This document shows positions 5,664 through 64,000 of a stretch of 64,000 nt of DNA, piece after piece. Every line of letters starts with the position of its first letter. Positions within the stretch are counted from its first letter, which is position 1. Under the pieces are notes generated by a model, which worked only from the letters and a program-made list of their open reading frames with translations, ran no database searches and was not told the DNA's origin. The stretch is taken from the NCBI GenBank assembly GCA_973895155.1, contig OZ316894.1, positions 19,846,451-19,910,450 of the forward strand, given 5' to 3'. The stretch comes from Marsupella aquatica. Lineage: Eukaryota > Plantae > Marchantiophyta. A program made the translations under genes and the position numbers.

Positions 5664-6045
5664 TTACAGTTTGTAGCCCAAGTATTCTGCGCGGGTTCCT
5701 CCCAGGTAGTCATCTGAATCATCCCTCGAGGATTCGATTGATAGAGCCAATTCTGCATCTGCGCGAGCTCCTTCCGTGTCATTTAACAAGAATTTGACAT
5801 AACCACGGTGCTTCAGCACTTCATAGTCAATGGTCTTTAGCTTTAAAGCTTCGTCCAAATCTTCCAGGGCGCCCCCCAGATCTCCTATTATTCGCTTCAA
5901 GACGCCCCTCTCCTGCAAGACAAAATGTCGGCATCCGTCAAGTTGAATGCCTCGTTGGCATCGTCCAGTGCCCCTTGAAAATCTCCTAGTTCTGCCTTTA
6001 CAAAAATTCTCGAACTGCCATCACAAATAGCACACTGAGTAATGC
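5664..6045 (-). pseudogene. TPR-repeat exon, copy 1 (frameshifted)
   Basis: Translates as KAELGDFQGALDDANEAF / QERGVLKRIIGDLGGALEDLDEAL / VLKHRGYVKFLLNDTEGARADAELAL, a TPR-type pattern. A net 4-bp loss near 5925 relative to copy 2 breaks the frame. Confidence 0.65.
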
Positions 6046-6628
6046 TGCCAAATAGATCACACGAGTGAGATCTAACAAGTTCCCTATTCTTTGCAACTTT
6101 GGCTCCCGCAACATTTCCACAATAGCTATGTTATTGATTCCAAGCAATGCGAAATGCGACTAGGCTTGGATGTTTCCAAATGTACCGTGCATCTGTTGCA
6201 TTTTCAATGATAAGATCTTTCCTATCTGGCTAGAAAGTTGGAATTTTCCTGTGCTTTGGAATGTATTCGTAGTTCTACTAGGTGAGAATCCGGTTAGCGA
6301 CCAAAATCAAAACTCAAATGAGGAAAAAAGAAAAGAGAAAAGAGAATATTCTGGAAATTCCGATTTCGTCAATTAGTTAGGCACCCAATAATCAGCATCA
6401 CCGATATCCGTATCAAACTGAGCATCTCAAATCCAGTTACGAAGCAGCTATGTCAGGACAGTGTCTTACTGTATAGATATTTAACTATTCTCAAGGACGT
6501 CAAATTGAATCTTCGCGTCCATACATCCATTGCCGTTAGCTTCATTAGTCACTACAAATCTATTTTATTTTGAGACGGTCCATTTCGTTGGATGATCAAC
6601 TGCTCTGCTTCTTTCTATGCGAATCTAT

Positions 6629-7304
6629 TCACACACAATAAAGGGCTGCGTCGATCGATATCAGTGATAACTTCACGTACCTTAAACTATCGGCATCAAG
6701 TTCTTGATCTCCCACCAAGTAGTAAGACCCTCCTCGATCTAGACTACGGTGGTCATTTTGTGACAAGTCATTCACCACACCAATGAGAGCACCCGCCTCT
6801 TTGGCGACTCTCAACTGCAAAGTATTGTCGGTCGAACTGGCAACATTTGCCAACGCCCGTGCTACTTCTTCTTGTAAACCACACTGGTCATTCAGAGCAT
6901 TATCGGATGAACAAGCAAGATGTGCCAATGCCAGTGCTGCTGTTTCTTGTAAATCACGGTCCTCATCCTGTGACAAGCAATTCACCAGGCCAACCAGAGC
7001 CCCCTGTGCATCGGCAACTCTCAACTTCAGAGCATTATCGGATGAACAAGCAAGATTTGCCAATGCCCGTGCTGCTGTTTTTTGTAAATCACGGTGCTCA
7101 TCCTGTGACAAGCAATTCACCAGGCCAACCAGAGCCCCCTGTGCATCGGCAACTCTCAGCTGCAGAGCATTATCGGTCGAATTTACAAGATTTGCCAATG
7201 CCCATGCTGCTTCTTCTTGTAAATCACGGTGCTCATCCTGTGAGAAGCAATTCACCAGGCCAACCAGAGCCCCCTGTGCATCGGCAACTCTCAACTTCAG
7301 AGCA
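6629..7304 (-). pseudogene. Out-of-frame 3' remainder of the copy-1 ARM array
   Basis: ORF 6629..7294 continues the same 45-aa repeats in another frame after a 62-bp deletion at about 7315. It contains one more shortened unit and a degraded capping region. Confidence 0.7.
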
Positions 7305-8880
7305 TTATCGGATGAACAAGCAATTCACCAGGCCAACCAGAGCCCGCTGTGCATCGGCAACTCTCAACTGCAGAGCATTATCGGATGAACCGGCAAGATT
7401 TGCCAATGCCCGTGCTGCTGTTTCTTGTAAATCACGGTGCTCATCCTGTGACAAGCAATTCGCCAGGCCAACCAGAGCCCCCTGTGCATCGGCAACTCTC
7501 AACTGCAGAGCATTATCGGATGAACCGGCAAGATTTGCCAATGCCCCTGCTGCTGTTTTTTGTAAATCACGGTGCTCATCCTGTGACAAGCAATTCACCA
7601 GGCCAACCAGAGCCCCCTGTGCATCGGCAACTCTCAACTTCAGAGCATTATCGGATAAACCGGCAAGATTTGCCAATGCCAGTGCTGCTGTTTTTTGTAA
7701 ATCACGGTGCTTATCCTGTGACAAGCAATTCACCAGGCCAACCAGAGCCCCCTCTGCATCGGCAACTCTCAACTGCAGAGCATTATCGGATGAACCGGCA
7801 AGATTTGCCAATGCCAGTGCTGCTGTTTTTTGTAAATCACGGTGCTCATCCTGTGACAAGCAATTCACCAGGCCAACCAGAGCCCCCTGTGCATCGGCAA
7901 CTCTCAACTTCAGAGCATTATCGGATAAACCGGCAAGATTTGCCAATGCCAGTGCTGCTGTTTTTTGTAAATCACGGTGCTTATCCTGTGACAAGCAATT
8001 CACCAGGCCAACCAGAGCCCCCTCTGCATCGGCAACTCTCAACTTCAGAGCATTATCGGATGAACCGGCAAGATTTGCCAATGCCCGTGCTGCTGTTTCT
8101 TGTAAATCACGGTGCTCATCCTGTGACAAGCAATTCACCAGGCCAACCAGAGCCCCCTCTGCATCGGCAACTCTCAACTTCAGAGCATTATCGGATGAAC
8201 CGGCAAGATTTGCCAATGCCCGTGCTGCTGTTTTTTGTAAATCACGGTGCTCATCCTGTGACAAGCAATTCACCAGGCCAACCAGAGCCCCCTGTGCATC
8301 GGCAACTCTCAACTTCAGAGCATTATCGGATGAACCGGCAAGATTTGCCAATGCCAGTGCTGCTGTTTTTTGTAAATCACGGTGCTTATCCTGTGACAAG
8401 CAATTCACCAGGCCAACCAGAGCCCCCTCTGCATCGGCAACTCTCAACTCCACAGCATTATCAGTCGAACCGGCAAGATTTGCCAATGCCCGTGCTGCTG
8501 TTTTTTGTAAATCACGGTGCTCATCCTGTGACAAGCAATTCACCAGGCCAACCAGAGCCCCCTGTGCATCGGCAACTCTCAACTGCAGAGCATTATCGGA
8601 TGAACCGGCAAGATTTGCCAATGCCCGTGCTGCTGTTTCTTGTAAATCACGGTGCTCATCCTGTGACAAGCAATTCACCAGGCCAACCAGAGCCCCCTCT
8701 GCATCGGCAACTCTCAACTTCAGAGCATTATCGGATGAACCGGCAAGATTTGCCAATGCCCCTGCTGCTGTTTTTTGTAAATCACGGTGCTCATCCTGTG
8801 ACAAGCAATTCACCAGGCCAACCAGAGCCCCTTTCTCATCGGCAAGTCTGAACGTTATAGGATCATCTCTCGCTGGTGCC
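6760..8880. repeat. 135-bp coding tandem repeat array, copy 1 (11 consecutive full units plus about 4 further full or partial units)
   Basis: The anchor 'caaccagagc' recurs every 135 bp from 7334 to 8819, and again at 7261, 7126 and 6991. Confidence 0.95.
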
Positions 8881-11800
8881 AAATTTGCCAAAGCGTGTGC
8901 CGCATTTCTTTGTAGGGTAGGCTTGGATTGCTGACACAAGCAATTCACAAGACTGGCGAGTAGGCCCTCTTTGTTGACAATTACTCGGTGAATCCGAATT
9001 TCTTTCGAGAATGCTAAGCCACTCAAGGCTAGAGCCGCATTTTCTGGAAATGCATCCGACTCCCAATCGGGGAGGGTGAGTGAGTGTAGTAGCACGTCCA
9101 AAACACCGGGAGTGTTTCCAACCAGGATTGCTGAGTTGTCATATGAAGCCTTCCAACACACAAGACACAATGTTTTGGAGGCCGCCTCTTGGACACTACT
9201 GGGGAAGCCCTCCTTCAAATTCAAAAGGTCAACTACAGTCTGCAAAAAGGTGATTGTATGTTCGTTGAGCAGAGGCGTATCTTCTATGGACGAAATGTGC
9301 ATAATAAACGCAAGGGTGGCCAACTGTACGGAAGGACAAGCACCCAAGTTCAGCAGGTAAGTGATGTTGTCGTTATCTAGCCGGCGGTTGCATATGAAGT
9401 TGAGAAGGACCTGTAATAAAAGAAAGGGAGTCACAATGCCGAGTAATTAAATTCAGTGACAATTATAGATCAGAACTGTCATATGATTGTTTTCTTTTGA
9501 AAATTAATTTCCTAAGGTAGAAAGAAGGCAGAAAATGTATCGAAGAGACAGCTTTCCGACTGCTCTAAAAATCATGCTTCTATTATAATACTCTCTCACA
9601 GTTTCGTATATAAAATGTAGCATGTACGTCTGGCTCTTTCACAATGTTTGTATACACCAAATGTCCACGTTCTACTAAGGAAATTCTGGAATTTGTAGCT
9701 GTTCCAGAAAAATGGTCAAATTGATTTTCGCAAGAGTTACCTACTTAGTACGAAGAATAGCTAGCTGAAGAATATATATGAAGTCTGACTCAGTCTGTCA
9801 CGCACTTGGTTCCATTATGAACTGCTGGATTCAGTGAAAGGAAGTACTAGAATTATTGAGATGATTCTCTTCAATCAGAAATGTTCCAGTCGACTTCAAG
9901 AGAACTAGTCGATTTATATTAATATTATAATTATACTATAGCGAGAGTAAAATGTAGAGGGAAGCACTTCTTCAAGGGCGGCAGGAGAAATACCTTTCTG
10001 ATACGGCACTTGTCCATTTCCGTCCATGGCTCCTCCTCTTCAGGCTTGTCCAAGAGCCATATCAATGGCTCGATAGCTTTCCTCCTTAGATCCTTCATGG
10101 TATCATCAGAATCTACAAGATTGGCTATTTTGGAAGCCTTTGCCATGGCACTAGTCACAACTGGATCCGTATGACAGCCATCAAAGTATAGAGCACAAAG
10201 AGTGATTCTCACTCTCATCTCGTCACTCTCCGGCACTATTTCTATTTCATTACCTACCAATTCCGATTCAGCAGCCTGCAACTTGCATCTGATGCTTGAC
10301 GTGATGCTTGACTCAGGTGAAAAACTGTCATCACCAGACAATGCCCCAATCACATCCCTAACTTCCTGTTTGCCCACAACATGCCGTTCCATATAAAGTT
10401 TCACCAGAGACTGTAGGGACCACGCGGGAGTGTCCTCCTCATTTTCTTCCTTGCCCACATTCATCTTGGATGCCAATGTATCAGCTTTACGCTTCAATAG
10501 TTCTCTCATCCATAATTCATCTGTTGACCTTGTGAATGAAGAGCTTGACATGTTCATACCAGCACAGAAAAGTCGAAGGACCTCTTCGGGAACAGATTCT
10601 GCTTTACATGCATACATCAAGAAGAGTATCCGTTTGGCATCCCTGGTTTCCAGAGATTCTAGACAAAGCGTCATAGCCCCCCAAAGGCTTCTAGGTGTAG
10701 CACTCTCATCGTCTAACACGATAGTTGTAGCTTTAGAGTCTAGTAACTCAGATAATTCCTTCCAAGCTTCTCGCCAAGCCCTTTTATTCTTCTTATCTGC
10801 CTTGTAGGAAAAGGTACTGGCCAAACAGGCCAGAGCTAAAGGATTTCCATCAGTTGCTTGGATCATTTTATCTGCATACTCCTGCATTGAGACAATTTAA
10901 GAAGAAACACGAATTTTTATACCAGTTAGTCGCTAAGGAGACAACTAAAAGAACAATTACTTCAATCACAAATATGCGACTACAATATAAGATTTGCTTT
11001 GAGGGCAACTGACCTGTATGTTGTCAGGAACTTTGTTACACTCCAGCCCCACAAGGGAGGCAAGGATGTTTCTCGCTTCCTCTTTGGAAGCTTCGTCCAT
11101 CTTAATAAGCACAGAGGCATCTTTAAAGTCTTCACATAAATTAGACCTCTGGGAAGTGATGAGAATCTTATCATCTTTGCCGTCTCTGGCAGCCTTCCAC
11201 ATTTCATATACAAACTGCTTATCGGAAACGCCATCTAAGATCATCAAAATCTTCTGGCCAGCAAAAACATTATGGAGAGCGTTGGCGATTCTAGATTTTG
11301 AGCCAATATTCTCCCCAGATTTTGACATGTTTTCCTCGGCTAAACTAGCGGGAGAAAGGTGTTCCAAGATTTCATACTGCTTGGTGGCAAGATTAGATAT
11401 GGAACTATTGCCACACGACACAAAAATCACATGATCAAACACGTTGCTTTTTTCTCCAAATTGCCCATAGCGCTCACAGATATATCTGGCTAGGGTGGAC
11501 TTGCCTTTACCTACGCCACCATGCAATAATATCATGCGAGCCCCGCTCTGAGAATCTTCGATTGCCTTAATGACGGCAGACTGTGATTTTTCTATCGGAA
11601 CGTACTTGTTGTCGTTATTGTGGATAACTGTAGCCATGGCTCTATTCCTGCCTACTTCTCGCATGAGACCATAGAATTGCACTTCCTCCTCGACGATTCT
11701 TGGGATGCTCTCAAGTTCTTGGATCACCATCTGAAATGTCTTTTCTAACCTTTCTGGGAAAAGTGTCAAGTTCACTTTCGCATAAATGCACCAGAATTGG

Positions 11801-12087
11801 GAACAGCACTGGTTGCCAGACACGTTTCTCTCCAACTTGTTTAATCTTGCTTCCGCCTTCTTCAACGCCAATTCGGCTTCCTCTAGTGTCTTCATCATTG
11901 TGCTCTCCACAGGTTGCTGATGGACGCGGACTTGCTCCTCATAGAAAACAAGTCTTGAGCTCAGTATCGCCGCTTTGCTTTGATACTCGGCTGACGCAGT
12001 GAACCAGTCTTCTTTGAAATTCTCAATCTTTGACACAATGTCAAGAATTGAACCGCATACAGTAACGACTTCCTTCACTGCGTCCAT
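7305..12087 (-). CDS. NLR-like STAND protein, copy 1: N-terminal helical domain + NB-ARC + Armadillo-repeat array (exons 12087-11014, 10881-9994, 9410-7305; about 1355 aa, ended by a frameshift)
   Basis: Motifs are P-loop LHGGVGKGKSTLA, Walker B ILMILDGV, RNBS-B KILITSQ, GLPL-like DGNPLALA and MHD-position WSLQSLV, followed by 45-aa ARM-type repeats (LVNCLSQ...LQxxAAxALANLA). Two phase-0 GT-AG introns sit at the same positions in all three copies. Confidence 0.8.
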
Positions 12088-15000
12088 TGACTCTGTACGA
12101 CACGGCACGCTATGGAAAGACATTAGCAATTACCAAAGTATGAAACAAAGCTAGGTGAAGCTCGCAATGAACGTAGTGGCTTGCTACTAACTGTACGTAT
12201 GTCTGCGAGGCCACTGTATCCGTATAGCCATACCCAAATAGATTTCGCTACTACCAAGGACATCAAAGAAGCATTGCAGAGATTAAGTATAATTGCTTGA
12301 TGGAATGACTTTACCCGCGTAATCAGTTCTTCCTCCGAGTTTTATGTCTTCAAAATCGGGACAACGCTGCCTCCTCACGATTCAGGACTTCTTTCGAAAG
12401 AACCGATTAACCACTTACTAGTTGGACAAAAAGCTCTCCTCACCACTTCCGACTCGACATTGTGAAATGCTCAGCTGTTCAGCAAAAGATTTAGATAACA
12501 GTTACTCCCACCAAGCGTTTTCAAGAGAGTTCAATATTAAAATTTGTTGCATGTTTACAGAAGGGAGATCATAAGCATGACCAAGATGATGCTGAGCAGG
12601 ATCGTTTAGTTGCGGGACCTTCAATGTGAATTTTGAAAGCTAGTGCGGCACTACTGTAGCACTGGAGGAGCGTACATCAAATATTGAACGTCCAGATGTC
12701 GGCATCGTTCGATATGGCGAGTGTTTATTAGGACAGATTCCTAATGTGTCCGAATTGCACGATCAGTAGCTCGAGCAGTAGCTACATAAGCGCCAATTTT
12801 CAGTACCGCCTGTTTCAAACGTTAGAAGGTCCTATGTATCTCCACCACTAGACCTGGCGATGCGATACACAACCTATTGGGCCGAGCGACAGCAGATGGA
12901 GGAGCAATATTAATTAAGCTGTGTCATCCTAAAGAAGAAGTTTGGACGCCACAATATCCAACTCCAATGCTGTGACAGCAAGCTGCACGACACGCACCTG
13001 TAAGATGCAATTCGAAACCAGATATGCGAGATGATCGACTGCGATCTACGATGCCATTGACTGTCAACCACGCGCGAAGTTGCATCAACTCTAAGAGCAT
13101 GCCAAGCCCAACCCAGCATGTACTTAGTTTTTGTAGAAGATAGTTGAACTATATATTACGATGTGCAGAGCTAGCACTAAATCATTACGTTAGGAGGAGC
13201 AGGACAACTACAGTAACCTGTTTCTCAGACCTCGACCATTATTGGGCTACAAATCTAGGACTGCAAGCTCACCACGCATGCATGAACCACCCATACTCTT
13301 ACTTACAATTCCGGATGCATGGTGAAGATGAAGCCTTGGGCCTGCTGTGCATCAAGAACAATTTGACCCTCGGTAGCGGGGATATTGATATGGCTCAACG
13401 CTTTGCAGACAGTACATTGCCCTTTCGTTAACTGTAAGCAAGTAACAATCAGTCCAATCCTAACCCCGACTACCTGCGGCCGATGTTTTCCAGAGAAAGA
13501 CCTTTCGTGCTTCTCGGTTACCAACTTAAGGCAAAGTTTATGAATGCGGTCGGGCATTCATTATGTTGTCTTCCTGGATCCCTACGCGATCAACAGGTTC
13601 CATCGAGCAATAGTGGCAAACAAGATGCATCAACATCGCATCTACCGAGACACGCACTTCGGCGAACTACCAGCAGGTATGAAACACAAAACGCAAGTTC
13701 ACTGATGCAACATTCTAGTTCAAGATAAGCTTTCCTTACCTCAGTAGCAGCTTATGCGATTGAAGACATAGCTGACAACTTCTCCTAAACTTTCGCTGTC
13801 TCGTCGGCCGTCCTATTTCTGGACACTCGTTTTGCTTACGGACGGCGTTGCCCCGTCGCGTGTCACCAAATATGTTGACATACTTCAGTTTCGATCAACT
13901 TCCAACGTCTTTACGTCAATCGATTGACTAATCGCCACTACTATGGTCTTGCATGCGATCAAACCTGAAATACGTCTTCGGTCGCAATGGGATGGAGACA
14001 TCGCATTGAGTCATTCTGCAAGGGCGCATCATCGAAAATAGTTGAGGGAAAACGAGTGAAAAGCTTAAGAAAGGTGGGTCCACATCTGCTTGTAGGTGGG
14101 CAACCTCAGCGTACAGCGCTAAATTATGCATCCTCCTCAGTCATGAACAGGGACGAGTCCACGTGATTCTCGTGGTGGGCCATTCACGACTTCTTTCTCT
14201 CAGAGATGGATGCAATAAAGTGACGAAGAAGCGTAGATCTGAGGATTCTCCCTCTATGATTCCTGTCATTTAGTTAATTGAAAGGTGCAGGTTCAAGACA
14301 GTGTCCTTGCGTTAGTTCATGTTCCAGCACCGCAAATGACCGGCCGTATAGAAACTGAATTCTTTGAAAACCTTCTGTCAGCAAGCATACTCTAAAAAAC
14401 TGGTGATCTTTGCCTGACATAAGGGTGTCATACTGTCATTTCACCAAAGAGCGTAATTCCACCATTCAGGGCTACGGTCCCTGCAGAGTCATTTATGACT
14501 CTCCGTACCCGCTGCCTCGTACTTCTGCCCGATCCCTGAGAGAAGGTAAAAACTTTCTCACAGCAGGCTCTGCTGCAGTGGTAGCCCACTAGAGTGGGGA
14601 GGAGTATTTCGAGGGTTCGAAATTTCCTGGATGCAGTGCTCTATGAACGTACCCCTCCCGGAATGAATGGGGGGTGCAGGTAACTTTAATGACATTTACA
14701 AAAATTGACAGCAGTTTTCAGTATTTTTTGGCAGCATACCTATACGGACAAGCAGCATATGGTCCGCAAGTCCAGGGATTAGTCTCCCTGAATTCTACTT
14801 GAGTTTGACTTTGCTCACAAACCTGGTATCGACCCGATTGCTTGCCACTTTAGCTGGGGACGAGTATCAACCATTTGATAAGTCCATAATCTTCTTTAAA
14901 GGAGTTGGTTTAGACAAATCGATTGTGCGTGAAATATAGAGGACACTCTAAAGGTGGGCAATATAAATGTTATGATGAGGATAAAACCTGTTCATGTCCA

Positions 15001-15339
15001 GGCACAGTGTAATCTTTAAGGTTTTTCTTTATTAGCCAAAGTGGCAAAAGTCAAAGAATGTGGTTGAAGGAGAAGATGTTAGGAATATTTTTTATCTGAA
15101 AATCCCAAATTATTTTCTGACTGTTAGATCTCCCTAGATTTAAGGATGAGGTAAAATTCTGGTTAACGGGACCTGTGACTAGGTGAGAAACTGGCAAATG
15201 TGACATTGGAAAAACTAGAGACTGAGGTGGAATCTAGCAAAAAATTGGCCACTAAAGGAAACCTTTAAAGCATCCCAATTTGCCTTAGGATATTGCCTTT
15301 GGTTGTCACTCGTCATATTTATAGTAAATTGTTGCTTTT

Positions 15340-18300
15340 GGTTTCACGACCGTAACCCTTTGATTCTGAACATGTTTTGGGGGTCCATTCCTTCTTAGTC
15401 CTTGTACTCTTACAACCTCGAGTGGGGCTCAAACCCATAAGCTTGTCCACCAGGCTTCACATGAAACAAAGTTCTAATGAATGTGTTTGATGCAAGTGAA
15501 TATCCAGGGACACTAACCATTGGCCACTTTGTTCAATGTCTATTACCTAAATATCAGGACCTATGTATCAAGTTAAAAGATAAATTGAGAGTAGCAAAAA
15601 CAAAAGCCATTTGCGCTTCCCAGCTCATGAAAGCTTTGATCAATTGGACTTCATACTGGTTTGTAAACCTAGTGACCATCACACGATCACTATATACCTA
15701 GTCACAAACCTTGGAAGACTTTCTGCACTATGCTCATCATGGAAATTAAGCATTTCAAAGAAATTGAAAAACTCCACAATTGCGATTCCGCAAAAGACTT
15801 TCTTAAAAGGATTTTCCTTGCAAACAAGTAAAGTAGATTGATAGTTTATCTAAAACACTCAAAGTGCCCATCCACAACCCATCATATCAATCCATCAAGT
15901 CTCTAGTATGCTTCTAATCCATAATCTAGTAACTATGATTGAGAGATATACTTAATGGACCTCCAAATGCAACTGACTCCTTTACTTAATAGACCAAAAG
16001 TTGCACACTCTCTCCCAGTGGACCTTCGGGCCCACCAGAGGTACCATTTTGTGTGAGATGTTCTTCTAACGCACTCTGCAATTCTTATAACACGAGATTG
16101 GCACTATAAAACATAGCATGTTCTATTGATCTTCAGTGTCCAACCGTACACTGAAATTTTTGTTAGTTCTAATAAATGGATGCAACAACCGGAAGCCGGA
16201 GTTGAGAGGGGTGTCGGGCGGTGATGGATGACAAGGGAACCATTGAGGGGGTACAAGGAGGCCACAAGGCAGCCCAAGGACTTGGAGGCACGATGTGGGC
16301 ATCTCAGAGGGGTGGGGGCTGGCCAGAGGCTCCACATAAGGCGCAAAACGGGAATAATGACCAAAATATAGAAAACATTAAAATTTAAACAGACGTTGCT
16401 GCTCTAGTAGTATTCCAAACATGGTCATGTTTGGATTCATTTTGAAGCCCTCAATGAGCCCCATGCGAAACTGAGGTTCTCTAGTTGATTTTAGGTCTAT
16501 ATCAAAAAGGGATATCTCAAGGGACCTCAACGCCCGTAAAACGGTAAACTAGACAATCTTGGAGTAGTGATGGTGGGAGGGCCCTTAGAAGGAAGGGACT
16601 CCCACAATTTCCCTTCCTCAATCTATAGTTTCCCACAATTTTCCTTCCCCACTCCGTAGAAGGGGCACTCCGTAGAAGTTAGGGGCACTCCGTAGAATAA
16701 CACATCCGTAGAAGGGGCACTCTGTAAAAGAACACATCCGTAGAAGGGGCCCCCACACTTTCTTCCTCCCCTTTTTCTCTATTCACACTTGTGAGTTTCC
16801 CACCCATACCTAAACCCTAAACCCTTTCCCCCTTGTGCTTGCTTTCGACGTGTGTACCCTGGTTGTACAAACATCAGATTTTTGACCATCTCAAAATCAG
16901 GAGTTTACGGGTTTGTTGGAAGGAGCTCGTTGAGCTGAATCCAACGATGTGTCACACGGCCAAAACGGAGTTAAAATGATAAAGATACGTTAGATTATGT
17001 TTTGACAAAAATCTCTCGACGTTGGATCCGTACGGACGTCCGTACATCCGGCAGCCAGGGACCCTAATTTTTTCCCCAAAGTGGAGATGGCAGCAGCAAA
17101 GCTGGGGACCCCTGTTGTGGGAGAAGCCGGGCCCCCTGGTGTTGTACGAACGAAACGGAGGGGGACGGTGTCCCGTAAAAACTTAAACGATCATATCTCG
17201 TCCGTTTGGGATCCGTTTTGAGTGTCATTTACGGATCCGTGATCAGGAGGAGCAGGGCTGTCCAGGGCTCCCCTCAGGGGAGTAGTTTGAAATATTTGAG
17301 GTTTCGACCATGGGAGGGCCTCCTCACTTCCACAGGACTACGGATTCTGGATTGTTGTTTGGCACCATCGAAGGCACTGTCGGTCCCGTAGTTACATTAG
17401 GGTTCTAGGTAGTATGTGTGTGCCGCATGATTTAGGTTAGGGAATTCTTGAATGAGGTTTTAGCGGTGCCACTAGGGTAGCCGCCATCGTTGTGACCCCA
17501 TGAGGGGTGCTTTGGTGTGTTTTTTTTTGTATTTAGGAGGGAGCCCCATAGTGAATCGGGGGGCCGGGTCGGGGGGAACTCAGTTTAGTAATTATGGAGA
17601 GATCTTTGTGAGTAGCACACGGAAGAGGAGGGATTTCAACCAGAGTAGTGAGGTGGAGGACGTACTGCTTGTCCCAGGGAGGCAGGAGTTGGGCAGACGG
17701 CAGGAGGCCGGGTTGTCCTTGCATGTGTTGTGTACACCACTAAGAGATATAGATTTGGTTTGAAGTTCAGAAATTTGGTGTATCACTTGTTACTTCTTGC
17801 GTTGCTTGTTTTCCTCCCCTAGTGCATCATGTGGTTGGCTTTGTTGTCAAAGCGATTGCCCTGGTCACTAGTGTTAAAATCTTATTGTAAAATGTTTGTA
17901 CGGTTGCCCATGTGAGGGGGAGTGGTGACAGCACTCATCCAATGGCCATTAGTTGTAGAATGTAGGACCAGTTCGCAAGACTTGATCAAAAACGTAGAGG
18001 CCAGTTAGTAGACTTGATCAAAAAGTACACTTCCGGGAGCGGAATCAAACATACTCATCCTTAGGTGTGGGAATCCTCCAAATAGCGGCCCTCCACGACC
18101 CCGTAACACAATACCAACAGTTTATGCAAAGGAAAGTACAATTTTACGTATAAATGGTTGGATAGGCAAGTGACACTGCGGAGTCATGAATATAATTTTT
18201 GCAATGTGAGTAATGAATATGTACATTGTGTGACATGTATACCATCCAATCATGGTTTGTGCATTCTTATCTAGTACTCTCTTCATTTTTGGAATAGATC

Positions 18301-22608: not shown

Positions 22609-22841
22609 TGACCTAAGAGACAGGTATTTTTTCGTCATTCAAGCTGTATCGGACAAATCACTATAAAGAGCCTCATGTATGCTAGGTGTGTACTAAAATA
22701 AGGTCTGTGACTACTTTCATCAATCCCATTACATCAACACATATGAATCATGAGCAAATGGTTTTTGTCATATAATTGCATGACCAGATTTTTCGGTCAA
22801 GCATTGAGGGATAGGCAACGTCGGGCACTGGTATGTCATCC

Positions 22842-28838: not shown

Positions 28839-29217
28839 TTACAGGGTGTAGCCCAAGTATTCTACGCGGGTTACTCCCAGGTAGCCATCTGAATCATCCC
28901 TTAACGATTCGATTGATAGAGCCCATTCTGCATCTGCGCGAGCTCCTTCCGTGTCATTTAACAAGAATTTGACATAACCACGGTGCTTCAGCATTTCATA
29001 GTGTCTTTAGGTTTAAAGCTTCGTCCAAATCTGCCAGGGCACCCCTTAGATCTCCCATTATGTGCTTCAAGACGCCCCTCTCCTGCAAGACAAACGCCCT
29101 GTCGGCATCCGTCAAGTTGAATGCCTCGTTGGCATCGTCCAGTGCCCCTTGAAAGTCTCCAAGTTCTGCCTTGACAAAAATTCTCCTACTGCCATCACAA
29201 ATAGCACACTGAGTATG
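28839..29217 (-). pseudogene. TPR-repeat exon, copy 2 (frameshifted)
   Basis: Homologous to 58718-59101, with a deletion near 29000 giving a premature TGA. Confidence 0.65.
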
Positions 29218-29794
29218 CTGCAAATAGATCACACGAGTTGGATCTAAACCAGTTCCCCTATTCTTTGCAACTTTGGCTACCGCCACATTTCCGCCACATT
29301 TCAAGAATAGCTATGTTATTGATCCAATGCAGTGCGAAATGCGACTAGGAGTGGATGTCTCCAAATGTACCGTACATTTGTTGCATTTCTTTTGATAGAT
29401 CCTTCCTATCTGGCTAGAAAGTTGGAATTTTCCTGTGCCTTGGAATGTATTATGGAACCTCCAGAGATTCTAGTAGGTGACGAACTGGTAAGCGACCAAC
29501 ATCAAAACTCAAATGAGGACAAATGAATAGAGAAATATCTGGAATCCTGTCATCATCATCACAGATTAGTTCCTATCCGACTGAGCTTCTCAATCCAGCT
29601 ACTAAACCGGCACCTATGACAGGACAGTGTCTTACGGTATAGATATTTAGCTTTTCTCAAGGACGTCAAATTGAATCTTGGCGTTTGTACATCCCTTGCC
29701 CTTAGCTTTACTAGTCCCTACAGACTTATTTTCTTTTGACACTGTCCATTTAGTTCGATGAACAACTTCTTTGGTTCGTTTTGAATATGGATGT

Positions 29795-30374
29795 TTCTCT
29801 GGTATGCAACTCCAATTTTTATAGGCAAGTTTTTCATTCATTACAATGGCCTTATATCCAATTGATCAACTTGGATTTCATTTTAGTCTACTAAAGTACT
29901 CCTTTTTTATAAGGTAAGTTTTTTAATTCTTTATAATGATTTTATATCCAATTGACCATTTTAGATTTCATTTTAGTTTCCAAAAGTCTTGTAGCTCTGA
30001 CCTCAAAGAATACAAAAATGTAACTTAAAAAAAACCAAGCTTGTTTTGATGTACAAAAAATAGATCAAAACAAAATTATATAGGTTTTTTTTAATAAAAG
30101 GGTTTACGCCAAACAAGCTAGCTTTTTAGAATTTTTATTAAAAATTTTAATTTTTTTTAATAAAAATTATAACATGTATAGGAATATATTTTAATTTCAT
30201 ATGAAAAAAAGAAGAAAACCAAATTTTTTATGACTTGAAAATTTTTAAAAGTGGAAAATTTAAGTTTTTTCAAATTTTAATTATTTTGTATAGTCAATTT
30301 TTTAATCCATATAAAAATGTAAACCCGTTCTTTGTAGAGCCTTGTCTATTATATAAAAATTGCATACCGGGGAG
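29795..30374. mobile_element. AT-rich MITE-like insertion
   Basis: A very AT-rich block of about 580 bp that is absent at the equivalent site of copy 3 (about 59672). Imperfect inverted termini: ctctggtatgcaa ... ttgcataccgggag. Confidence 0.55.
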
Positions 30375-33300
30375 CTTTATATTTACACAATAAAGAGTTG
30401 TGGCGGATAAATAGAAGTGATAAATTCACATACCTTAATGTATAGGCATCAAGTTGTCTCGACAGCAAGCCTACTCGCTTAGCTATGGTCGGGTCTATCT
30501 TAAACAATGCTTGCGCTGCTGCATATAGAATATCCGGATGCACGTCATCTCCCACCAAGCTTGTAAGCCCTTCCAATAGACCTTCCGTTCTTCTGAGGAT
30601 CACTTTTGCCTCTGAAGATCGAGCTAGATTTAATGCCATTCTTGCTGCCTCCCTTTCCAAATCAAGGTTGTCACTTTTTGACAAACAATTCACCAGACCA
30701 ACCAGAAAACCCTTCTCACTCGTGACTCTCAGCTTCAGAGTATTATCCGTTGAACCCGCAAGATTTGCCAACGCCCGTGCTGCTTGTTTTTGTAAATCAC
30801 GGTGCTCATCCTGTGACAAGCAATTCACCAGGCCACCCAGAGACCCCTCCGCATCGGCAACTCTCAACTTCAGAGCATTATCGGATGAACCGGCAAGATT
30901 TGCCAACGCCGATGCTGCTTGTTTTTGTAAACCGTGGTGCTCATCCTGTGACAAGCAATTCGCCAGGCCAACCAGAGCCCCCTCCGCATCGGCAACTCTC
31001 AACTTCAGAGCATTATCGGATTGACCGGCAAGATTTGCCAACGCCCGTGCTGCCTGTCTTTGTAAATCACGGTGGTCATTTTGTGACAAACAATTCACCA
31101 GGCCAACCAGAGCCCCCTCCGCATCGGCAACTCTCAACTTCGGAGCATTATCCGATGAACAGGCAAGATTTGTCAACACCCATGCTGCTTGTTCTTGTAA
31201 ATCACGATGCTCATCCTGTGACAAGCAATTCACCAGGCCAACCAGAGCCCCCTCCGCATCGGCAACTCTCAACTTCAGAGTATCGGAGTGACAAGCAAGA
31301 GTTCCCAACGCCCGTGCTGCCTGGCCTTGTAAATCACGGTGGTCATTTTGTGACAAGCAATTCACCAGGCCAACCAGAGCCTCCGCATTGGCAACTCTCA
31401 AGTTCAGAGCATTATCGGATGAACGGGCAAGATTTGCTAACGCCCCTGCTGCTTGTTCTTGTAAATCACGGTGGTCATTTTGTGACAAATAGTTCGCCAG
31501 GCCAACCAGACCCCCTCCGCATTGGCAACTCTTAGCACAAGAGCATTATCGGTCGAACTAGCAAGATTTGCCAACGCCCCTGCTGCTACTTCTTGTGAAT
31601 CAGGGTTCTCATCCTGTGACAAGCAATTCACCAGGCCAACCAGAGCCCCTTTCTCATTGGCGAGCCTGAACAATAGAGCATCATCGCCCGTAGATGCAAG
31701 ATTTGCCAAAGCGTGTGCCGCGTAAAGTTGTAGGGTAGGCTTGGATTGCTGACACAAGCAATTCACAAGACTGGTGAGTAGGCCCTCCTTGTTGACAATT
31801 ACTCGTTGAATCTGAATTTCTTGCGAGAATGCTAAGCCACTCAATGAATTAGCCGCATTTTCTGCAAATGCATCCGATTCCCAATCGGGGAGGGTGAGTG
31901 AGTGTAGTAGCACGTCCAAAACACCCGAAGTGTTTCCAACCAGGATTGCTGAGTTGTCATATGAAGCCTTCCAACAAACAAGACACAATGTTTTGGAGGC
32001 CGCCTCTTGGACACTACTCTGGAAACCCTCCTTTAAATTCAAAAGGTCAACTACAGTCTGCAGAAAGGTGACTGTATGTTCGTTGAGCAGTGGCGTATCT
32101 TCTATGGACGAAATGTGCATAATAAACGCGAGGGTGGCCAACTGTACGGAAGGACAAGCACCGCAGGTAAGTGATGTTGTCGTTATCTAGGCGGCAGTTG
32201 CATATGAAGTTGAGAAGGACCTGTAATAAAAGAAAGGGAATCACAATGCCGAGGAATTAAATTCAATGACAATTATAGATCAGAACTGTCATATGATTGT
32301 TTTCTTTTGAAAATTAATTCCCTCAAATAGAAAGAAGGCAGAGAAAACGTATCGAAGAGACAGCTTTCGGACTACTCTAAAAATCATGCTTTTATTAAGA
32401 CTCTCGTACAGTTTCGTATATAAAATGTAGCATGTACGTCTGGCTATTTAACAATATTTGTATACACAAGACGCCCAGGTTCTACTAAGGAAATCAAACG
32501 CCTGAATTTCATTGAAAAAGTCGAATTTGTATCTTTTCCAGAATGATAATGGTCATATTGATTTCCGCAAGAGTTACCTACTTCGTACGAAGAATAGCTG
32601 AAGAATACATATGAAGTCTGACTCAATCTGTCACGCACTTGGGTCCATTATGAACATGTGAACTGCTAGATTCTGTGAGAGGAAGTACTAGAATTATTGA
32701 CATGATTCTCTTCAATCAGAAATGTTCCAGTCGACTTCAAGAGATCTCTAGAACTACTCGATTTATATTAATATTATACTGTAGAGAGAGTAACATTTAG
32801 AGGGAAGCACATCTTCAAGGGTGGCAGGAGAAATACCTTTCTGACACGCCACTTGTCCATTTCCGTCCATTGCCCCTCCTCTTCAGACTTGTCCAAGAGC
32901 CATATCAATGGCTCGATAGCTTTCCTCCTTAGATCCTTTATGGTATCATCAGAATCTACAAGATTGGCTATTTCGGAAGCCTTTGTCATGGCCCGCCTCA
33001 CAACTGGATCTGTGTGACAGCCATCAAAGTATAGAGCGCAAAGAGTGATTCTCACTCTCACTCTCACCTCGTCACTCTCTACTATTTCTATTTCATTACC
33101 TACTAATTCCGTTTCAGGAGCCTGATGCTTGATGTGATGCTTGACCCAGGTGAAAAACTGTCATCACCAAACAATGCCCCAATCACATCCCTGACTTCCT
33201 GTTTGCCCACTACATGCCGTTCCATATAAAGTTTCACCAGAGACTGTAGGGACCACGCGGGAGTGTCCTCCTCATTTTCTTCCTTGCCCACATTCATCTT

Positions 33301-34930
33301 GGATGCCAATGTATCAGCTTTACGCTTCAATAGTTCTCTCATCCATAATTCATCTGTTGACCTTGTGAATGAAGAGCCTGACATGTTCTTCATACCAGCA
33401 CAAAAAAGTCGAAGAACCTCTTCGGGAACAGATTCTGCTTTACATGCATACATCAAGAAGAGTATCCGCTTGGCATCCCTGGTTTCGAGAGATTCTAGAC
33501 AAAGCTTCATAGCCCCCCACAGGCTTCTAGGTGTAGCAGTCTCATCGTCTAACACGATAGTCGTAGCTTTAGAGTCTAGTAACTCAGATAATTCCTTCCA
33601 AGCATCTCGCCAAGCCCTTTTATTCTTCTTATCTGCCTTGTAGGAAAAGGTACTGGCCAAACAGGCCAAAGCTAAAGGATTTCCATCAGTTGCTTGGATC
33701 ATTTTATCTGCATACTCCTGCATTGAGACAATTTAAGAAGAAACACGATTTTTTATACCAGTTAGTCGCTAAGGAGAGTGACGACTAAAAGAACAATTAC
33801 GTCAATCACAAATAATTATGCGACTACAATATAAGATTTGCTTTGAGGGCAACTGACCTGTATGTTGTCAGGAAATTTGTTACTCTCCAGCCCCACAAGG
33901 GAGGCAAGGATGTTTCTCGCTTCCTCTTTGGAAGCTTCGTCCATCGTAATAAGCACAGAGGCATCTTTAAAGTCTTCACATAAATTAGACCTCTGGGAAG
34001 TGATGAGAATCTTATCATCTTTGCCGTCTCTGGCAGCCTTCCACATTTCATACACAAACTGCTTATCGGAAACGCCATCTAGGATCATCAAAATCTTCTG
34101 GCCAGCAAAAACATTGTGGAGAGCGTTGGCGATTCTAGATTTTGAGCCAACATTCTCCCCAGATTTTGACATGTTTTCCACGGCTAAACTAGCGGGAGAA
34201 AGGTGCTCCAAGATTTCATACTGCTTGGTGGCAAGATTAGATATGGAACTATTGCCACACGACACAAATAGTACATGATCAAACACGTTGCTTTTTTCTC
34301 CAAATTGCCCATAGCGCTCACAGATATATCTGGCTAGGGTGGACTTGCCTTTACCTACGCCACCATGTAATAATATCATGCGAGCCCCGCTCTGAGAATC
34401 TTCAATTGCGTTAATGACCGCAGACTGTGTCTTTTCTATCGGAACGTACTTGTTACTGTTATTGTGGATAACTGTAGGCATGGCTCGATTCTTGCCTTCT
34501 TCTCGCATGAGACCAGAGAATTCCCCTTCGTCCTTGATTTTTTTGAGATACTTTCAAGGTCTTGGATTACCATCTGAAATGTCTTTTCTAACTTTTCTGG
34601 GAAGAGTGTCAAGTTCACTTTCGCATAAAACCACCAGAATTGGGAACAGCACTGGTTATCGTCCACGCTTTTCTCCAACTTTTTTAATCTTGCTTCTGCC
34701 CTCTTCAGTGCCAATTCGGCTTTCTTTAATGTCTTCATCATAGTGCTCTCCACAGGTTGCTGATGGATGCGGACTTGCTTCTCATAGAAAGAAAGCTTTG
34801 ACCGGAGTATCGTCGCTTCACTTTGATACTCGACTGACACAGTGAACCAGTCTTCTTTGAAATTCTCAATCTTTGACACAATGTCACGAATTGAACCGCA
34901 TACAGTAACGACTTCCTTCACTGCGTCCAT
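30349..34930 (-). pseudogene. NLR-like NB-ARC-ARM gene, copy 2 (exons 34930-33858, 33717-32837, 32220-about 30434), multiply frameshifted
   Basis: Same motifs and introns as copy 1. Frame disruptions occur at about 34540, about 33110, about 32162 (short deletion) and about 31510 (1-bp deletion). It retains the C-terminal capping repeats. Confidence 0.85.
30680..31720. repeat. 135-bp ARM tandem array, copy 2 (about 7 units, two shortened by 3 bp)
   Basis: 'caattcaccaggccaaccagag' recurs at about 135-bp spacing. Confidence 0.9.
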
Positions 34931-58717: not shown

Positions 58718-59101
58718 TTACAGTTTGTAGCCCAAGTACTCTACACGGGTTCCTCCCAGGTAGCCATCTGAATCATCCCTTAAGGATTCGATTGATAGAG
58801 CCCATTCTGCATCTGCGCAAGCTCCTTCCGTGTCATTTAACAAGAATTTGACATAACCACGGTGCTTCAGCACTTCATAGTCATTGGTGTCTAGGTTGAA
58901 AGCTTCGTCCAAATCTGCCAGGGCACCCCTTAGATCACCCATTATGTGCTTCAAGACGCCCCTCTCCTGCAAGATAAACGGACGCGGGGCAACCGTCATG
59001 TTGAATGCGTCGTTGGCATCGTCCAGTGCCCCTTGAAAGTCTCCAAGTTCTGCCTTGACAAAAATTCTCGAGCTGCCATCACAAATAGCACACTGAGTAT
59101 G
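58718..59101 (-). CDS. TPR-repeat exon, copy 3 (open frame, about 127 aa, about 3 TPR motifs)
   Basis: An uninterrupted frame HTQC...KAELGDFQGALDDANDAF...QERGVLKHIMGDLRGALADLDEAF...VLKHRGYVKFLL...GYKL* is preceded by an acceptor-like 'ctatttgcag'. Upstream exons are not resolved. Confidence 0.55.
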   Translation of the reverse strand, partial: HTQCAICDGSSRIFVKAELGDFQGALDDANDAFNMTVAPRPFILQERGVLKHIMGDLRGALADLDEAFNLDTNDYEVLKHRGYVKFLLNDTEGACADAEWALSIESLRDDSDGYLGGTRVEYLGYKL

Positions 59102-59959
59102 CTGCAAATAGATCAAACGAGTTGGATCTAAACCAGTTCCCCTATTCTTTGCAACTTTGGCTACCGCCACATTTCAAGAATAGCTATGTTATTGATCCAA
59201 TGCAGTGCGAAATGCGACTAGGATTGGATGTCTCAAAATGTACCGTACATTTGTTGCATTTCTAATGATAAGATCCTTTCTATCTGGCTAGAAAGTTGGA
59301 ATTTTCCTGTGCCTTGGAATGTATTATGGAACCTCCAGTCATTCTAGTAGCTGAGAAACTGCTAAGCGACCAACATCAAAACTCAAACGAGGAAAAATGA
59401 AAAGAGAAATATCTGGAATCCAGTCATCATCATCACAGATTAGTCCCTATCCGTCGACTGAGCTTCTCAATCCAGCTACTAAACTGGCACCTATGACAGA
59501 ACAATGTCTTGTTGTATAGATATTTAGCTTTTCCCAAGCACGTCAAATTCAATCTTGCATTGGCGTTTGTACATCCATTGCCCTTAGCTTCACTAGTCCC
59601 TAAGACTTATTTTCTTTTGACACTGTCCACGTCGTTGGATTGATCAACTTCTTTGCTTTCTTCTGAATATGGACATTTATATTTACACAATAAAGAGTTG
59701 CATCGGATCAATAGAAGAGATAAATTCACATACCTTAATGTATAGGCATGAAGTTGCCTTGACAACAAGCCTACTCGCTTAGCTAGTGTGGGGTCTATCT
59801 TAAACTTACAACGCTTCCACTGCTGCATATAGAGTATCCGGAAGCACGTCATCTCCCACCGAGCTTGTAAGCCCCTCCAAAACACCTTCCGTTCTTTTGC
59901 GGATCACTTTTGCCTCTGAAGCTTGAGCTAAATTTGATGCCATTCTTGCTGCCACTCTT

Positions 59960-61310
59960 TCCAAATCAAGGTTGTCATTTTGTGACAAGCAATTCACCAG
60001 ACCAACCAGAAAACCCTTCTCATTGGGGACTCACTCTCAACTTCAGAGTATTATCAGTTGAATCGGCAAGATATGCCAACACCTGTGCTGCTTGTTGTAG
60101 TAAACCATTGTGGTCCTTCTGTGAAAAGCAATTCACGAGGCCAACCAGAGCCCCCTCGGCATTTGCGATTGTAAACTGCACAGCATTATCCGTCGAAGCG
60201 GCAAGATTTGCCAACGCCCGTGATGCTACTTCTTGTAAACCATGGTGGTCATTCTGTGACAAGCAATTTACTAGGCCAACCAGAGCCCCCTCCGCATTGG
60301 CGATGCTCAACTCCACACCATTATCCGTCGAAGTTGCAAGATTTGCCAACGCAAGTGCTACATTTTCTTGTAAACCACGGTGGTCATTCTGTGACAAGCA
60401 ATTCACGAGGCCAACTAGAGCCCCCTCCGCATTTGCGATTCTCAACTTCGGAGCATTATCCGTCGACGAGGCAAGATTTGCCAACGCCCGTGCTGCTACT
60501 TCTTGTAAACCATAGTGGTCATTCTGGGACAAGCAATTTACAAGGCCAACCAGAGCCCCCTCCACATTGGCGACTCTCAACATCAGAGTATTATCCATTG
60601 TACAGGCAAGATTTGCCAATGCCCGTGCTGCTTCTTCTTGTAAACCATGGTGGTCATTGTGTGTCAAGCAATTCACGAGGCCAACCAGAGCCCCCTCCGC
60701 ATTGGCGATGCTCAACTCCACACCATTATCCGTCGAAGTTGCAAGATTTGCCAACGCCCCTGCTGCTGCTTCTTGTAAACCACGGTGGTCATTCTGTGAC
60801 AAGCAATTCACCAGGCCAACCAGAGCCCCCTCCGCATTGGCAATGCTCAACTGCACAACATTATCCGTCGAAGCTGCAAGATTTGCCAACGCCGGTGCTA
60901 CATTTTTTTGTAAACCACGGTGGTCATTCTGTGACAAGCAATTCACGAGTCCAACCAGAGCCCCCTCCGCATTTGCGATTCTCAACTTCGGAGCATTATC
61001 CGTCGACGAGGCAAGATTTGCCAACGCCCGTGCTGCTACTTCTTGTAAACCATAGTGGTCATTCTGGGACAAACAATTTACCAGCCCAACCAGAGCCCCC
61101 TCCACATTGGTGATGCTCAACTTCAGAGCACTATTTGACGAAGCTGCAAGGTTAGCCAACGCCCCTGCTGCTACTTCTTGTAAATCACGGTGTCCATTCT
61201 GTGACAAGCAATTCACGAGGCCAACCAGAGCCCCTTTCTCATTGGCGAGCCTGAACTTTAGAGCATCATCGCGCGCAGATGCAAGATTTGCCAAAGCGTG
61301 TGCCGCATTT
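59960..61310. repeat. 135-bp ARM tandem array, copy 3 (9 core units)
   Basis: 'ggccaaccagagccccc' recurs at 135-bp spacing, with 45-aa periodicity in ORF 60020..61837. Confidence 0.95.
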
Positions 61311-64000
61311 CTTTGTAGGGTAGGCTTGGATTGCTGACACAAGCATTTCACAAGACTGGCGAGTAGGCCCTCTTTGTTGACAACTACTCGTTGAATCTGA
61401 ATTTCTTTCGAAAATGCTAAGCCACTCAATGCTTTAGCCGCATTTTCTGCAAATGCATCCGACTCCCAATCGGTGAGGGTGAGTGAGTGTTGTAGCACGT
61501 CCACAACACCCGAAGTATTTCCAACTAGGATTGCTGAGTTGTCATATGAAGCCTTCCAACAAACACGACACAATGTTTTGGAGGCCGCCTCTTGGACACT
61601 ACTCTGGAAACCCTCCTTCAAATTCAAAAGGTCAACTACAGTCTGCAAAAAGGTGATTGTATGTTCGTTGAGCAAAGGCGTATCTTCTATGGAAGAAATG
61701 TGCAAAATAACCGCGAGAGTGGCCAACTGTACGGAAGGACAAGCACCCAACTTCAGCAGGTAAGTGATGTTGTCGTTATCTAGCCGGCGGTTGCATATGA
61801 AGTTGAGAAGGACCTGTAATAAAAGAAAGGGAGTCACAATGCCGAGTATTTAAATTCAATGACAATTGTAGATCAGAACTGTCAGATGACTGTTTTCTTT
61901 TGAAAATTATTCCCTCAAAGAGAAAGAAGGCAGAAAACGTATCGAAAGGCCAGCTTTCCGACTGCTCTAAAAATCATGCTTCTATTATAAGACTCTCTCA
62001 CAGTTTCGTATATAAAATGTAGCATGCACGTCTGGCTATTTAACAATAATTGTATACACCAAACGTCCACATTCTACTAAGGAAATCAAACGCCTGAATT
62101 TCATTGAAAAAGTCGAATTTGTATCTTTTCCACATAATGGTCATATTGATTTTCGCAAGAGTTACCTACTTCGTACGAAGAATAGCTGAAGAATATGTAT
62201 GAAGTCTGACTCAATCTGTCACGCACTTGGTTCCATTATGAACATGTGAACTGCTAGATTCTGTGAGAGGAAGTACTAGAGTTATTGAGATGATTCTCGT
62301 CAATCAGAAATGTTCCAGTCGACTTCAAGAGAACTAGTCGATTTATATTAATATTATACTATAGAGAGAGTAACATGTAGAGGGAAGCACTTCTTCATGG
62401 ACGGCAGGAGAAATACCTTTCTGACACGGCACTTGTCCAGTTCCGTCCATTGCTCCTCCTCTTCAGGCTTGTCCAGGAGCCATATCAATGGCTCGATAGC
62501 TTTCCTCCTTAGATCCTTCATGGTGTCATCAGAATCTACAAGGTTGGCTATTTCGGAAGCCTTTGCCATGGCCCGACTCACAACTGGATCTGTGTGACAG
62601 CCATCAAAGTATAGAGCGCAAAGAGTGATTCTCACTCTCATCTCGTCATCCACTATTTCTATTTCATTACCTACTAATTCCGATTCAGGAGCCTGCAACC
62701 TGCATCTGATGCTTGATGTGATGCTTGACTCAGGTGAAAAACTATCATCACCAAACAATGCCCCAATCACATCCCTGACTTCCTGTTTGCCCACGACATG
62801 CCGTTCCATATAAAGTTTCACCAGAGACTGTAGGGACCACGCCGGAGAGTCCTCCTCGTTTTCTTCCTTGCCCACATTCATCTTGGATGCCAATGTATCA
62901 GCTTTACGCTTCAATAGTTCTCTCATCCATAATTCATCTGTTGACCTTGTGAATGAAGAGCTTGACATGTTCATACCAGCACAAAAAAGTCGAAGGACCT
63001 CTTCGGGAACAGATTCTGCTTTACATGCATACATCAAGAAGAGTATCCGTTTGGCATCCCTGGTTTCCAGAGATTCTAGACAAAGCGTCATAGCCCCCCA
63101 CAAGCTTCTAGGTGTAGCACTCTCATCGTCTAACACGATAGTCGTAGCTTTAGAGTCTAGTAACTCAGATAATTCCTTCCAAGCATCTCGCCAAGCCCTT
63201 TTATTCTTCTTATCTGCCTTGTAGGAAAAGGTACTGGCCAAACAGGCCAAAGCTAAAGGATTTCCATCAGTTGCTTGGATCATCTTATCTGCATAATCCT
63301 GCATTGAGACAATTTAAGAAGAAACACCAATTCTTGGAGCTGTTAGTAGCTAAGGAGGCAACTTAGAGAGCAATTACTTTACAAATATGCTACTACAATA
63401 TAAGATTTGCTTTGAGGGCAACGCACCTGTATGTTCTCCGGAAATTTGTTACTCTCCAGCCCCACAAGGGAGGCAAGGATGTTTCTCGCTTCCTCTTTGG
63501 ACGCTTCGTCCATCGTAATAAGCACAGAGGCATCTTTAAAGTCTTCACATAAATTAGACCTCTGGGAAGTGATGAGAATCTTATCATCTTTGCCGTTTCT
63601 GGCAGCCTTCCACATTTCATACACAAACTGCTTATCGGAAACGCCATCTAGGATCATCAAAATCTTCTGGCCAGTAAAAACATTATGGAGAGCGTTGGCG
63701 ATTCTAGATTTTGAGCCAATATTCTCCCCAGATTTTGACATGTTTTCCTCGGCTAAACTAGCGGGAGAAAGGTGCTCCAAGATTTCATACTGCTTGGTGG
63801 CAAGATTAGATATGGAACTATTGCCACACGACACAAAAATTACATGATCAAACACGTTGCTTTTTTCTCCAAATTGCCCATAGCGCTCACAGATATATCT
63901 GGCTAGGGTGGACTTGCCTTTACCTACGCCCCCATGCAATAATATCATGCGAGCCCCGCTCTGAGAATCTTCAATTGCCTTAATGACGGCAGACTGTGAT
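60020..64000 (-). CDS. NLR-like NB-ARC-ARM gene, copy 3 (5' end outside window; exons >64000-63427, 63298-62417, 61813-60020)
   Basis: Same NB-ARC motifs and introns as copy 1. The frame is open through 9 core ARM units, then a 4-bp 'actc' duplication at about 60030 puts the capping repeats (59734-60020) out of frame. Confidence 0.75.

Follow-up and report, generated by a model that had tools for sequence, protein, structure and literature searches.

Near-identical armadillo repeat arrays with a variable predicted groove in NLR-like genes of the liverwort Marsupella aquatica

Armadillo repeats in plant NLRs and the structure of the locus

The CC-NB-ARM clade of plant NLRs has been described as conserved across land plants. 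Table S3 of PMC12512272 places Mp5g21860 of Marchantia polymorpha in the CC-NB-ARM cluster together with rice RLS1. Functional work on the clade was found only for rice RLS1, and cell death following activation has been shown for this protein only, according to passages of PMC10030324. ARM-type repeat domains in NLRs of non-flowering plants are noted in passages of PMC8559963, PMC9825502 and PMC10586772, with only a table passage from PMC4759884. Passages of PMC4986451, which hold no survey of ARM repeats, give strongly conserved repeats of the ANK, TPR and WD types as 0.4% in green plants. Among open-access papers, we found no report of homogenized, groove-hypervariable ARM arrays in plant NLRs, and the main text of Chia et al. 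2024 uses neither the term ARM nor armadillo. Near-identical repeats with a changing binding face have until now been reported chiefly from fungal NLRs.

The window analyzed here, a stretch of 64,000 nucleotides from the liverwort Marsupella aquatica, contains three tandem paralogs with 7-15 array units per copy. The copy 1 gene has four exons on the minus strand and encodes, in this order, a helical bundle, NB-ARC, ARM and TPR, with the ATG at 12087 and the array in exon 3. GT and AG ends were checked at its first three exon junctions. Exon 1 (11014..12087; 358 codons) ends in a GT donor and encodes the helical bundle (approximately residues 1-134) as well as the first part of NB-ARC (Pfam E 5.9e-13) with the Walker A motif GGVGKGKST. 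Exon 2 (9994..10881; 296 codons) has an open frame with AG and GT ends, covers the remaining NB-ARC and a helical linker, and is collinear with Calypogeia P0003. Exon 3 reads as far as a premature stop (7305..9410) and encodes divergent ARM repeats (Pfam Arm) followed by 11 near-identical repeats of 45 amino acids. This array (7316..8853) was detected by TRF as 11.4 copies of a 135-bp unit at 96%, with 3.2 further copies at 6891-7323, and the encoded 45-aa units are ARM repeats (Pfam Arm E 8.4e-49). Downstream, a partial unit of 73 bp (7245..7390) lacks 62 bp, has lost helix 3 and shifts the frame. The out-of-frame remainder of exon 3 (6680..7324) keeps the units with X residues W, R, L and R, one unit shortened in frame and a C-terminal cap that is also shortened. 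Exon 4 (5667..6016) encodes a TPR-like tail, has lost 4 bp near 5930 and was located by tblastn with P0003 and by alignment to copy 3.

The predicted structure of exon 1 contains four long N-terminal helices (mean pLDDT 66), and the best PDB matches of the model are plant NLR resistosomes. Residues 1-140 of copy 1 show likeness to MLKL_N/RPW8 clusters at 0.90, which serves as a lead only and leaves the subtype broad. The Walker B motif is ILDGV in all three window copies, LDDV in Calypogeia P0003 and LDKL in P0006 and P0007, and the likely MHD-equivalent motif is LQS. Judging from both motifs, the nucleotide switch may be non-canonical. P0004 from Calypogeia fissa has an N-terminus unlike the helical bundle of P0003, with the remainder close to P0003, which suggests an effector-domain swap in this protein.

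Among named proteins, the closest come from Calypogeia fissa, with 58% identity across exon 1, others are from Marchantia and Riccia, and every named full-length relative is a liverwort protein. By themselves, these relatives point to a leafy liverwort as the likely source. NB-ARC is followed by ARM, not LRR, in consecutive exons (Pfam), and the four long helices of the medium-confidence model correspond to the helical N-terminus of CC-NB-ARM proteins. Mp5g21860 belongs to the 90% cluster of the homolog P0008. A tree of NB-ARC domains with 29 rows, RLS1 not among them and P0060, P0062 and P0091 dropped for short matches, placed copy 1 and P0008 in one group of 27 rows (liverwort proteins and unnamed matches) with support of 100/99 against two LRR-type outgroups. 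The order inside this group is largely unresolved. RLS1 was also absent from the named matches of the sequence searches. By architecture the array gene is of the CC-NB-ARM type, and by clade it is linked indirectly, through P0008 and Mp5g21860.

Frameshifts are present in all three copies. Copy 1 carries the 62-bp loss near 7320 and the 4-bp deletion in exon 4. Copy 2 (28842..34930, minus strand; 7 array units) has five frameshifts, near 34542, 33124, 32162, 31500 and 29002. Copy 3 (58721..64000, minus strand; 9 array units), with its 5' end beyond the window, has two 4-bp insertions near 60032 and 59805 and an open TPR-like exon. For most of the frameshifts, homopolymer errors in sequencing are an unlikely main explanation, given sizes of 62, 4, 13, 8, 5, 4 and 4 bp. 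Two 1-bp losses in copy 2 sit inside or beside base runs. The tail of copy 1 is identical in contigs of the sequencing runs X2 and X3 (6500-6976) and X1 (6500-6920), which come from two studies, one possibly the source sample, and cover the tail rather than the frameshifts. None of the contigs listed from four sequencing runs spans the copy 1 array. Translation of copy 1 would end at the 7305 stop once 11 array units have been read; the predicted product has 1355 amino acids, and the gene could encode at most this protein without cap and TPR tail. The stop lies upstream of an intron, and message decay is plausible. Several relatives likewise end without a TPR tail, and truncation therefore need not be lethal. 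Between copies, dN/dS of the non-repeat exons ranges from 0.20 to 0.72. We propose that birth-and-death turnover has left the three window copies truncated or dead.

The surrounding window contains several TE-related and repetitive features. A LINE-type element of approximately 5 kb (35710-40847, minus strand) with endonuclease and RT ORFs is inserted upstream of copy 2, in a region that apart from this insertion aligns with 14030-15223. Two degenerate LTR retrotransposons on the minus strand are likely Gypsy-like (20308-22638; RVT_1) and likely Copia-like (43154-47018; RVT_2 and integrase). The stretches 16155-20000 and 50510-54330 are duplicates over at least 3.8 kb with 95.6% identity, including a 16/32-bp tandem repeat. 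At the internal position 51165-51194 lie 4.3 perfect copies of CCTAAAC, which we take to be the plant telomere-type unit.

Variation within and among the repeat arrays

Helix 3 of the unit aligns without gaps to importin alpha-1a (2yns), LQEVAAGALANLA against LQFEAAWALTNIA. The initial annotation had described one hypervariable codon per repeat, here X, and had equated it with the Trp of the importin-alpha WxxxN motif. The alignment confirms this assignment, with X facing the W of LQFEAAWALTN. This register assigns X to ARM position 33, the pair following LQ to 29 and 30, and the Asn to 37, which is kept in 26/26 analyzed window units. The AlphaFold model of copy 3 exon 3 (pLDDT 89.6) consists of three-helix ARM repeats with positions 29, 30, 33 and 37 in the third helix, and matches the designed ARM protein 4rv1 in Foldseek (TM 0.92). 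Passages of PMC4756613 describe Trp33 and Glu30 as surface-exposed peptide-site residues, conserved asparagines of the concave side as binding the peptide backbone, and position 36 as buried. In passages of PMC11228518, a selected dArmRP pocket uses positions 29, 30 and 33 from two neighboring repeats, and one pocket in designed ARM binders comprises seven positions across two adjacent repeats. Our groove set (26, 29, 30, 33, 36, 37, 40 and 41) follows ARM numbering and is based in part on helix periodicity. The set was chosen after the per-codon entropy table had been seen and includes near-invariant sites, and the exposure of its positions stems from alignment and helix periodicity rather than from the model.

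The X codons of the copy 1 array start at 8762, 8627, 8492, 8357, 8222, 8087, 7952, 7817, 7682, 7547 and 7412. In copy 1 the X series is G,R,R,L,R,R,L,L,L,G,R, followed by W,R,L and another R at 6859; it is G,G,R,W,R,S,R in copy 2 and G,R,P,G,R,R,L,R,Q in copy 3. The 30 X residues given in the initial annotation were all found in the three copies, and every one of its 11 dipeptides following LQ occurs in the arrays. The gap between the 11th and 12th X of copy 1 is 208 (135+73), reflecting the frameshift in the unit without 62 bp. Because this frameshift separates the 11th from the 12th X, the codons for W,R,L lie in a different frame from the rest. Across the 31 units of the three copies, X is encoded by CGG (14), GGG (6), CTG (5), TGG (2), TCG, CCG, CTT and CAG (1 each). 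X hence takes eight codons and seven residues between nearly fixed neighbors, with GCA preceding it in 30/31 units. Other codons of the unit vary too. Among the 11 in-frame copy 1 units, entropy is 1.35 at unit codon 3 (E/Q/K) and 1.32 at the helix-1 unit codon 41 (K/Q/E), nearly as high as at X (1.49). Both codons lie outside helix 3, are highly variable in the window copies (E/Q at 3, K/Q/E/M at 41) and may be located on the groove rim. The codon model gives an omega of about 4 for helix-1 codon 41. The first array unit has GGG (Gly) at X in all three copies (8762, 31580 and 61165), which suggests a positional constraint at the array edge.

Copy 1 units are 95% alike (mean DNA identity 0.954), compared with 82-88% between copies. 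Protein identity among units over the scored columns is 0.91 in copy 1 and 0.75 and 0.83 in copies 2 and 3. Two copy 1 units (7970 and 7700) are identical, and the four-gamete test, three-allele sites included, detected five incompatible site pairs among copy 1 units 2-11. The within-copy likeness, the identical units and the incompatible pairs point to exchange among units. With respect to HiC-type repeats, copy 1 has units more than 85% identical across at least 100 amino acids, and the higher identity within than between copies in copy 1, together with the incompatible pairs, matches shuffling and concerted evolution.

Codon tests covered 26 of the 31 units, excluding five with indels or frameshifts. 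Tree-free minimal counts yielded 23 nonsynonymous (N) and 8 synonymous (S) changes in the groove, and 42 and 30 in the rest of the unit. N changes are concentrated in the groove (23/65, P 7-9e-4) and S changes are not (8/38, P about 0.3). The tree-free groove omega is 1.08-1.20, or 1.3-1.5 relative to the whole-repeat synonymous rate (P 0.07-0.17). Under GY94 with an ML tree of 25 distinct units, omega is 2.63 at the 8 groove codons compared with 0.73 at the other 37, and the strongest sites are 33, 30, 40, helix-1 codon 41 and 29. An NJ tree gives omega of 2.0 for the groove and 0.7 for the rest, with a class LRT of 11.2. Because recombination inflates tree-based codon tests, a recombination-aware neutral null was simulated in which a new, independent genealogy began on average every 3 or 10 codons, with omega of 0.2 at buried sites, neutrality at all others and a model without CpG term. 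The class LRT of 11.2 was exceeded in 1/236 and 0/270 null runs (1/506 overall). For X alone the LR is 22.7, a value that the top site among the 45 reached in 8/236 null runs or more and in 5/270. The groove patch is significant, and X as a single codon is marginal after post-hoc selection. Nonsynonymous changes had been expected to cluster on the concave helix-3 face; amino acid changes do cluster there (29, 30, 33, 40 and 41) with tree-based omega of 2.0-2.6 versus 0.7, but the tree-free omega does not significantly exceed 1.

Copy 1 units 2-11 carry 11 N and 2 S alleles with only 4/11 N alleles in the groove (P 0.12), a pattern that relaxed selection could also produce. Part of the variation in the frameshifted copies may be unselected. 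In 14/31 units the X allele requires a transversion, and CpG-type transitions from CGG (TGG, CAG) explain 3/31. CpG hypermutability as the sole cause was rejected, because G, L, P and S at X need transversions.

Arrays in relatives were compared using protein sequences. Among 17 scanned homologs, P0008, P0009, P0020, P0023, P0037, P0047 and P0060 had diverged too far to be used, and the 10 with regular arrays were phase-split into 14 arrays with end units trimmed. Groove entropy exceeded that of convex and loop positions in 12/14 arrays and 8/10 proteins (per-protein Wilcoxon P 0.01, with proteins that are kin and not fully independent). Relative entropy was highest at positions 40 (2.79), 30 (2.68), 26 (2.37), 33 (2.00), 29 (1.93), 36 (1.75) and 41 (1.58), and the top non-groove position was 22 (1.53). 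The annotated full-length relatives vary at the same helix-3 patch as the window copies, where mean entropy is 0.00-0.22 at exposed convex helix-2 positions versus 0.55-0.96 in the groove. The most variable position shifts among arrays, being 26, 29, 30, 33, 36, 37 or 40. Position 33 is fixed as F in 12/12 units of P0065, is W in 11/13 units of P0063 and mostly W in P0059, and is fixed in two sub-arrays. Asn37 is lost in P0006, P0007, P0063 and P0065. The three most divergent homolog arrays, P0025, P0059 and P0063, show little or no groove excess. Arrays of P0005, P0006 and P0007 (Calypogeia fissa) are higher-order: unit types alternate, three of them in P0005 and two each in P0006 and P0007.

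Candidate functions of the variable groove

We suggest that the array genes probably represent CC-NB-ARM-type NLR sensors, in which recombination keeps the units near-identical and selection diversifies a predicted helix-3 groove patch for ligand specificity. Our confidence in this reading is moderate. The diversified patch likely consists of positions 29, 30, 33, 40 and 41, with 26 and 36 added in relatives. What was observed directly is how the domains are ordered, where X falls in the ARM register, that amino acid changes cluster, that site pairs among units are incompatible and that relatives show the same pattern. From what is known of STAND/NLR and ARM proteins, we would expect an extended peptide to run along the ladder of conserved Asn37 residues, with its side chains read by pockets that adjacent repeats form jointly. 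By analogy with other STAND proteins and RLS1, ligand binding might release NB-ARC for oligomerization, and the oligomer might trigger cell death through its exposed N-terminal four-helix bundle. Pocket variants would be duplicated and rearranged by unequal exchange.

Neutral surface drift is the most serious alternative, even if unlikely. The groove would be exposed and unconstrained, particularly in broken copies, and homogenization would spread chance variants. Such drift would be consistent with frameshifts in all three copies, with a tree-free groove omega of about 1.1-1.2, with the non-groove codons 3 and 41 varying nearly like X in copy 1 and with the weak or missing groove excess of P0025, P0059 and P0063. 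Exposed convex helix-2 positions of the window copies vary little, however. The null with free recombination and all non-buried sites neutral matched the observed contrast in just one of the 506 runs, and full-length annotated relatives share the same variable patch, which also argues against drift.

A strict modular code, in which every repeat would use position 33, aided by 29 and 30, to read one peptide step and the target would be spelled by repeat order in the manner of TALE RVDs, has a low probability. The diversity of residues at X between near-fixed neighbors, the universal Asn37 of the analyzed window units and the modular peptide binding of designed ARM proteins reported in passages of PMC11228518 are in line with such a code. 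The same passages describe designed pockets covering two repeats and seven positions, though, and the top variable position differs between arrays (33, 30, 40, 26, 29, 36 or 37). Fixation of 33 in P0065 and two sub-arrays and the loss of Asn37 in P0006, P0007, P0063 and P0065 are further difficulties, and Gly and Pro at X would suggest side-chain loss rather than a code letter. The initial annotation had raised a repeat-by-repeat code by analogy with TALE RVDs and HET-E. The HET-E analogy fits given the upstream NB-ARC, while the idea of a single RVD-like position is not supported, with 30 and 40 varying like 33 and with the fixed 33 of P0065. Least probable of all is a variable face that tunes auto-inhibition or binds a host partner, such as a guarded protein or helper, without reading a foreign ligand directly. 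Rice RLS1 of the same clade acts with the host binding partner RMC (PMC10030324), and the non-canonical Walker B and MHD-equivalent motifs also speak for this reading. A fixed host partner alone would not favor repeated diversification, however, and the N-terminal exons have dN/dS below 1 and therefore give little sign of co-varying intramolecular partners.

A bolder extension of the sensor reading would make these liverwort NLRs natural counterparts of designed armadillo binders, with recombining ARM units as interchangeable pockets that read linear peptides stepwise. We regard this extension as quite doubtful. If true, shuffling would rewrite specificity, and targets could be predictable from the residue order at 29/30/33/36/40.

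Comparison with known repeat-based recognition systems

The locus and its relatives indicate that within liverworts the CC-NB-ARM clade repeatedly grew near-identical ARM arrays with a fast-changing groove. In early-diverging land plants, these liverwort ARM-array genes are candidates for variable sensors. Their variable positions coincide with the pocket residues that engineers randomize in designed ARM binders, and specificity is therefore directly testable. Marchantia polymorpha, with the relatives MpNBS-LRR15 and MpNBS-LRR17, is open to genetics.

TAL effectors consist of near-identical tandem repeats with few variable residues, as do the window arrays. In contrast to TAL effectors, the variable sites of the window arrays form a multi-position patch that shifts between arrays. 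Variation is not restricted to one or two positions common to every array, and a TALE-like code of one residue per repeat is not supported and less likely. Importin-alpha and dArmRP (passages of PMC4756613 and PMC11228518) share the fold and register of the window units, with 29, 30 and 33 as the specificity pocket and 37 as the conserved Asn. The window units differ in being natural, 45 amino acids long and fused to NB-ARC, and their peptide binding is only predicted.

The window genes share the helical N-terminus, NB-ARC and ARM with the CC-NB-ARM clade, including rice RLS1 (LOC_Os02g10900) and Mp5g21860/MpNBS-LRR17 (PMC12512272 and PMC10030324). Marchantia members of the clade often carry a TPR tail, as do the window genes. 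RLS1 has three annotated ARM motifs in the passages available, whereas the window copies have 7-15 array units that are up to 95% alike on average and carry a hypervariable groove. Fungal HET-E/NWD NLRs with WD40, ANK or TPR repeats (passages of PMC4986451) resemble the window genes, copy 1 above all, in combining a NOD with repeats that are more than 85% identical and shuffled. Positively selected sites of the fungal repeats lie on the concave or binding face, and for the window arrays the tree-based test gives such a signal while the tree-free test is not significant for omega above 1. Compared with these fungal NLRs with highly conserved repeats, the window gene has ARM units, a land-plant host and a four-helix-bundle effector. 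The window gene would work like the fungal NLRs with high-conservation repeats without being a member of that group.
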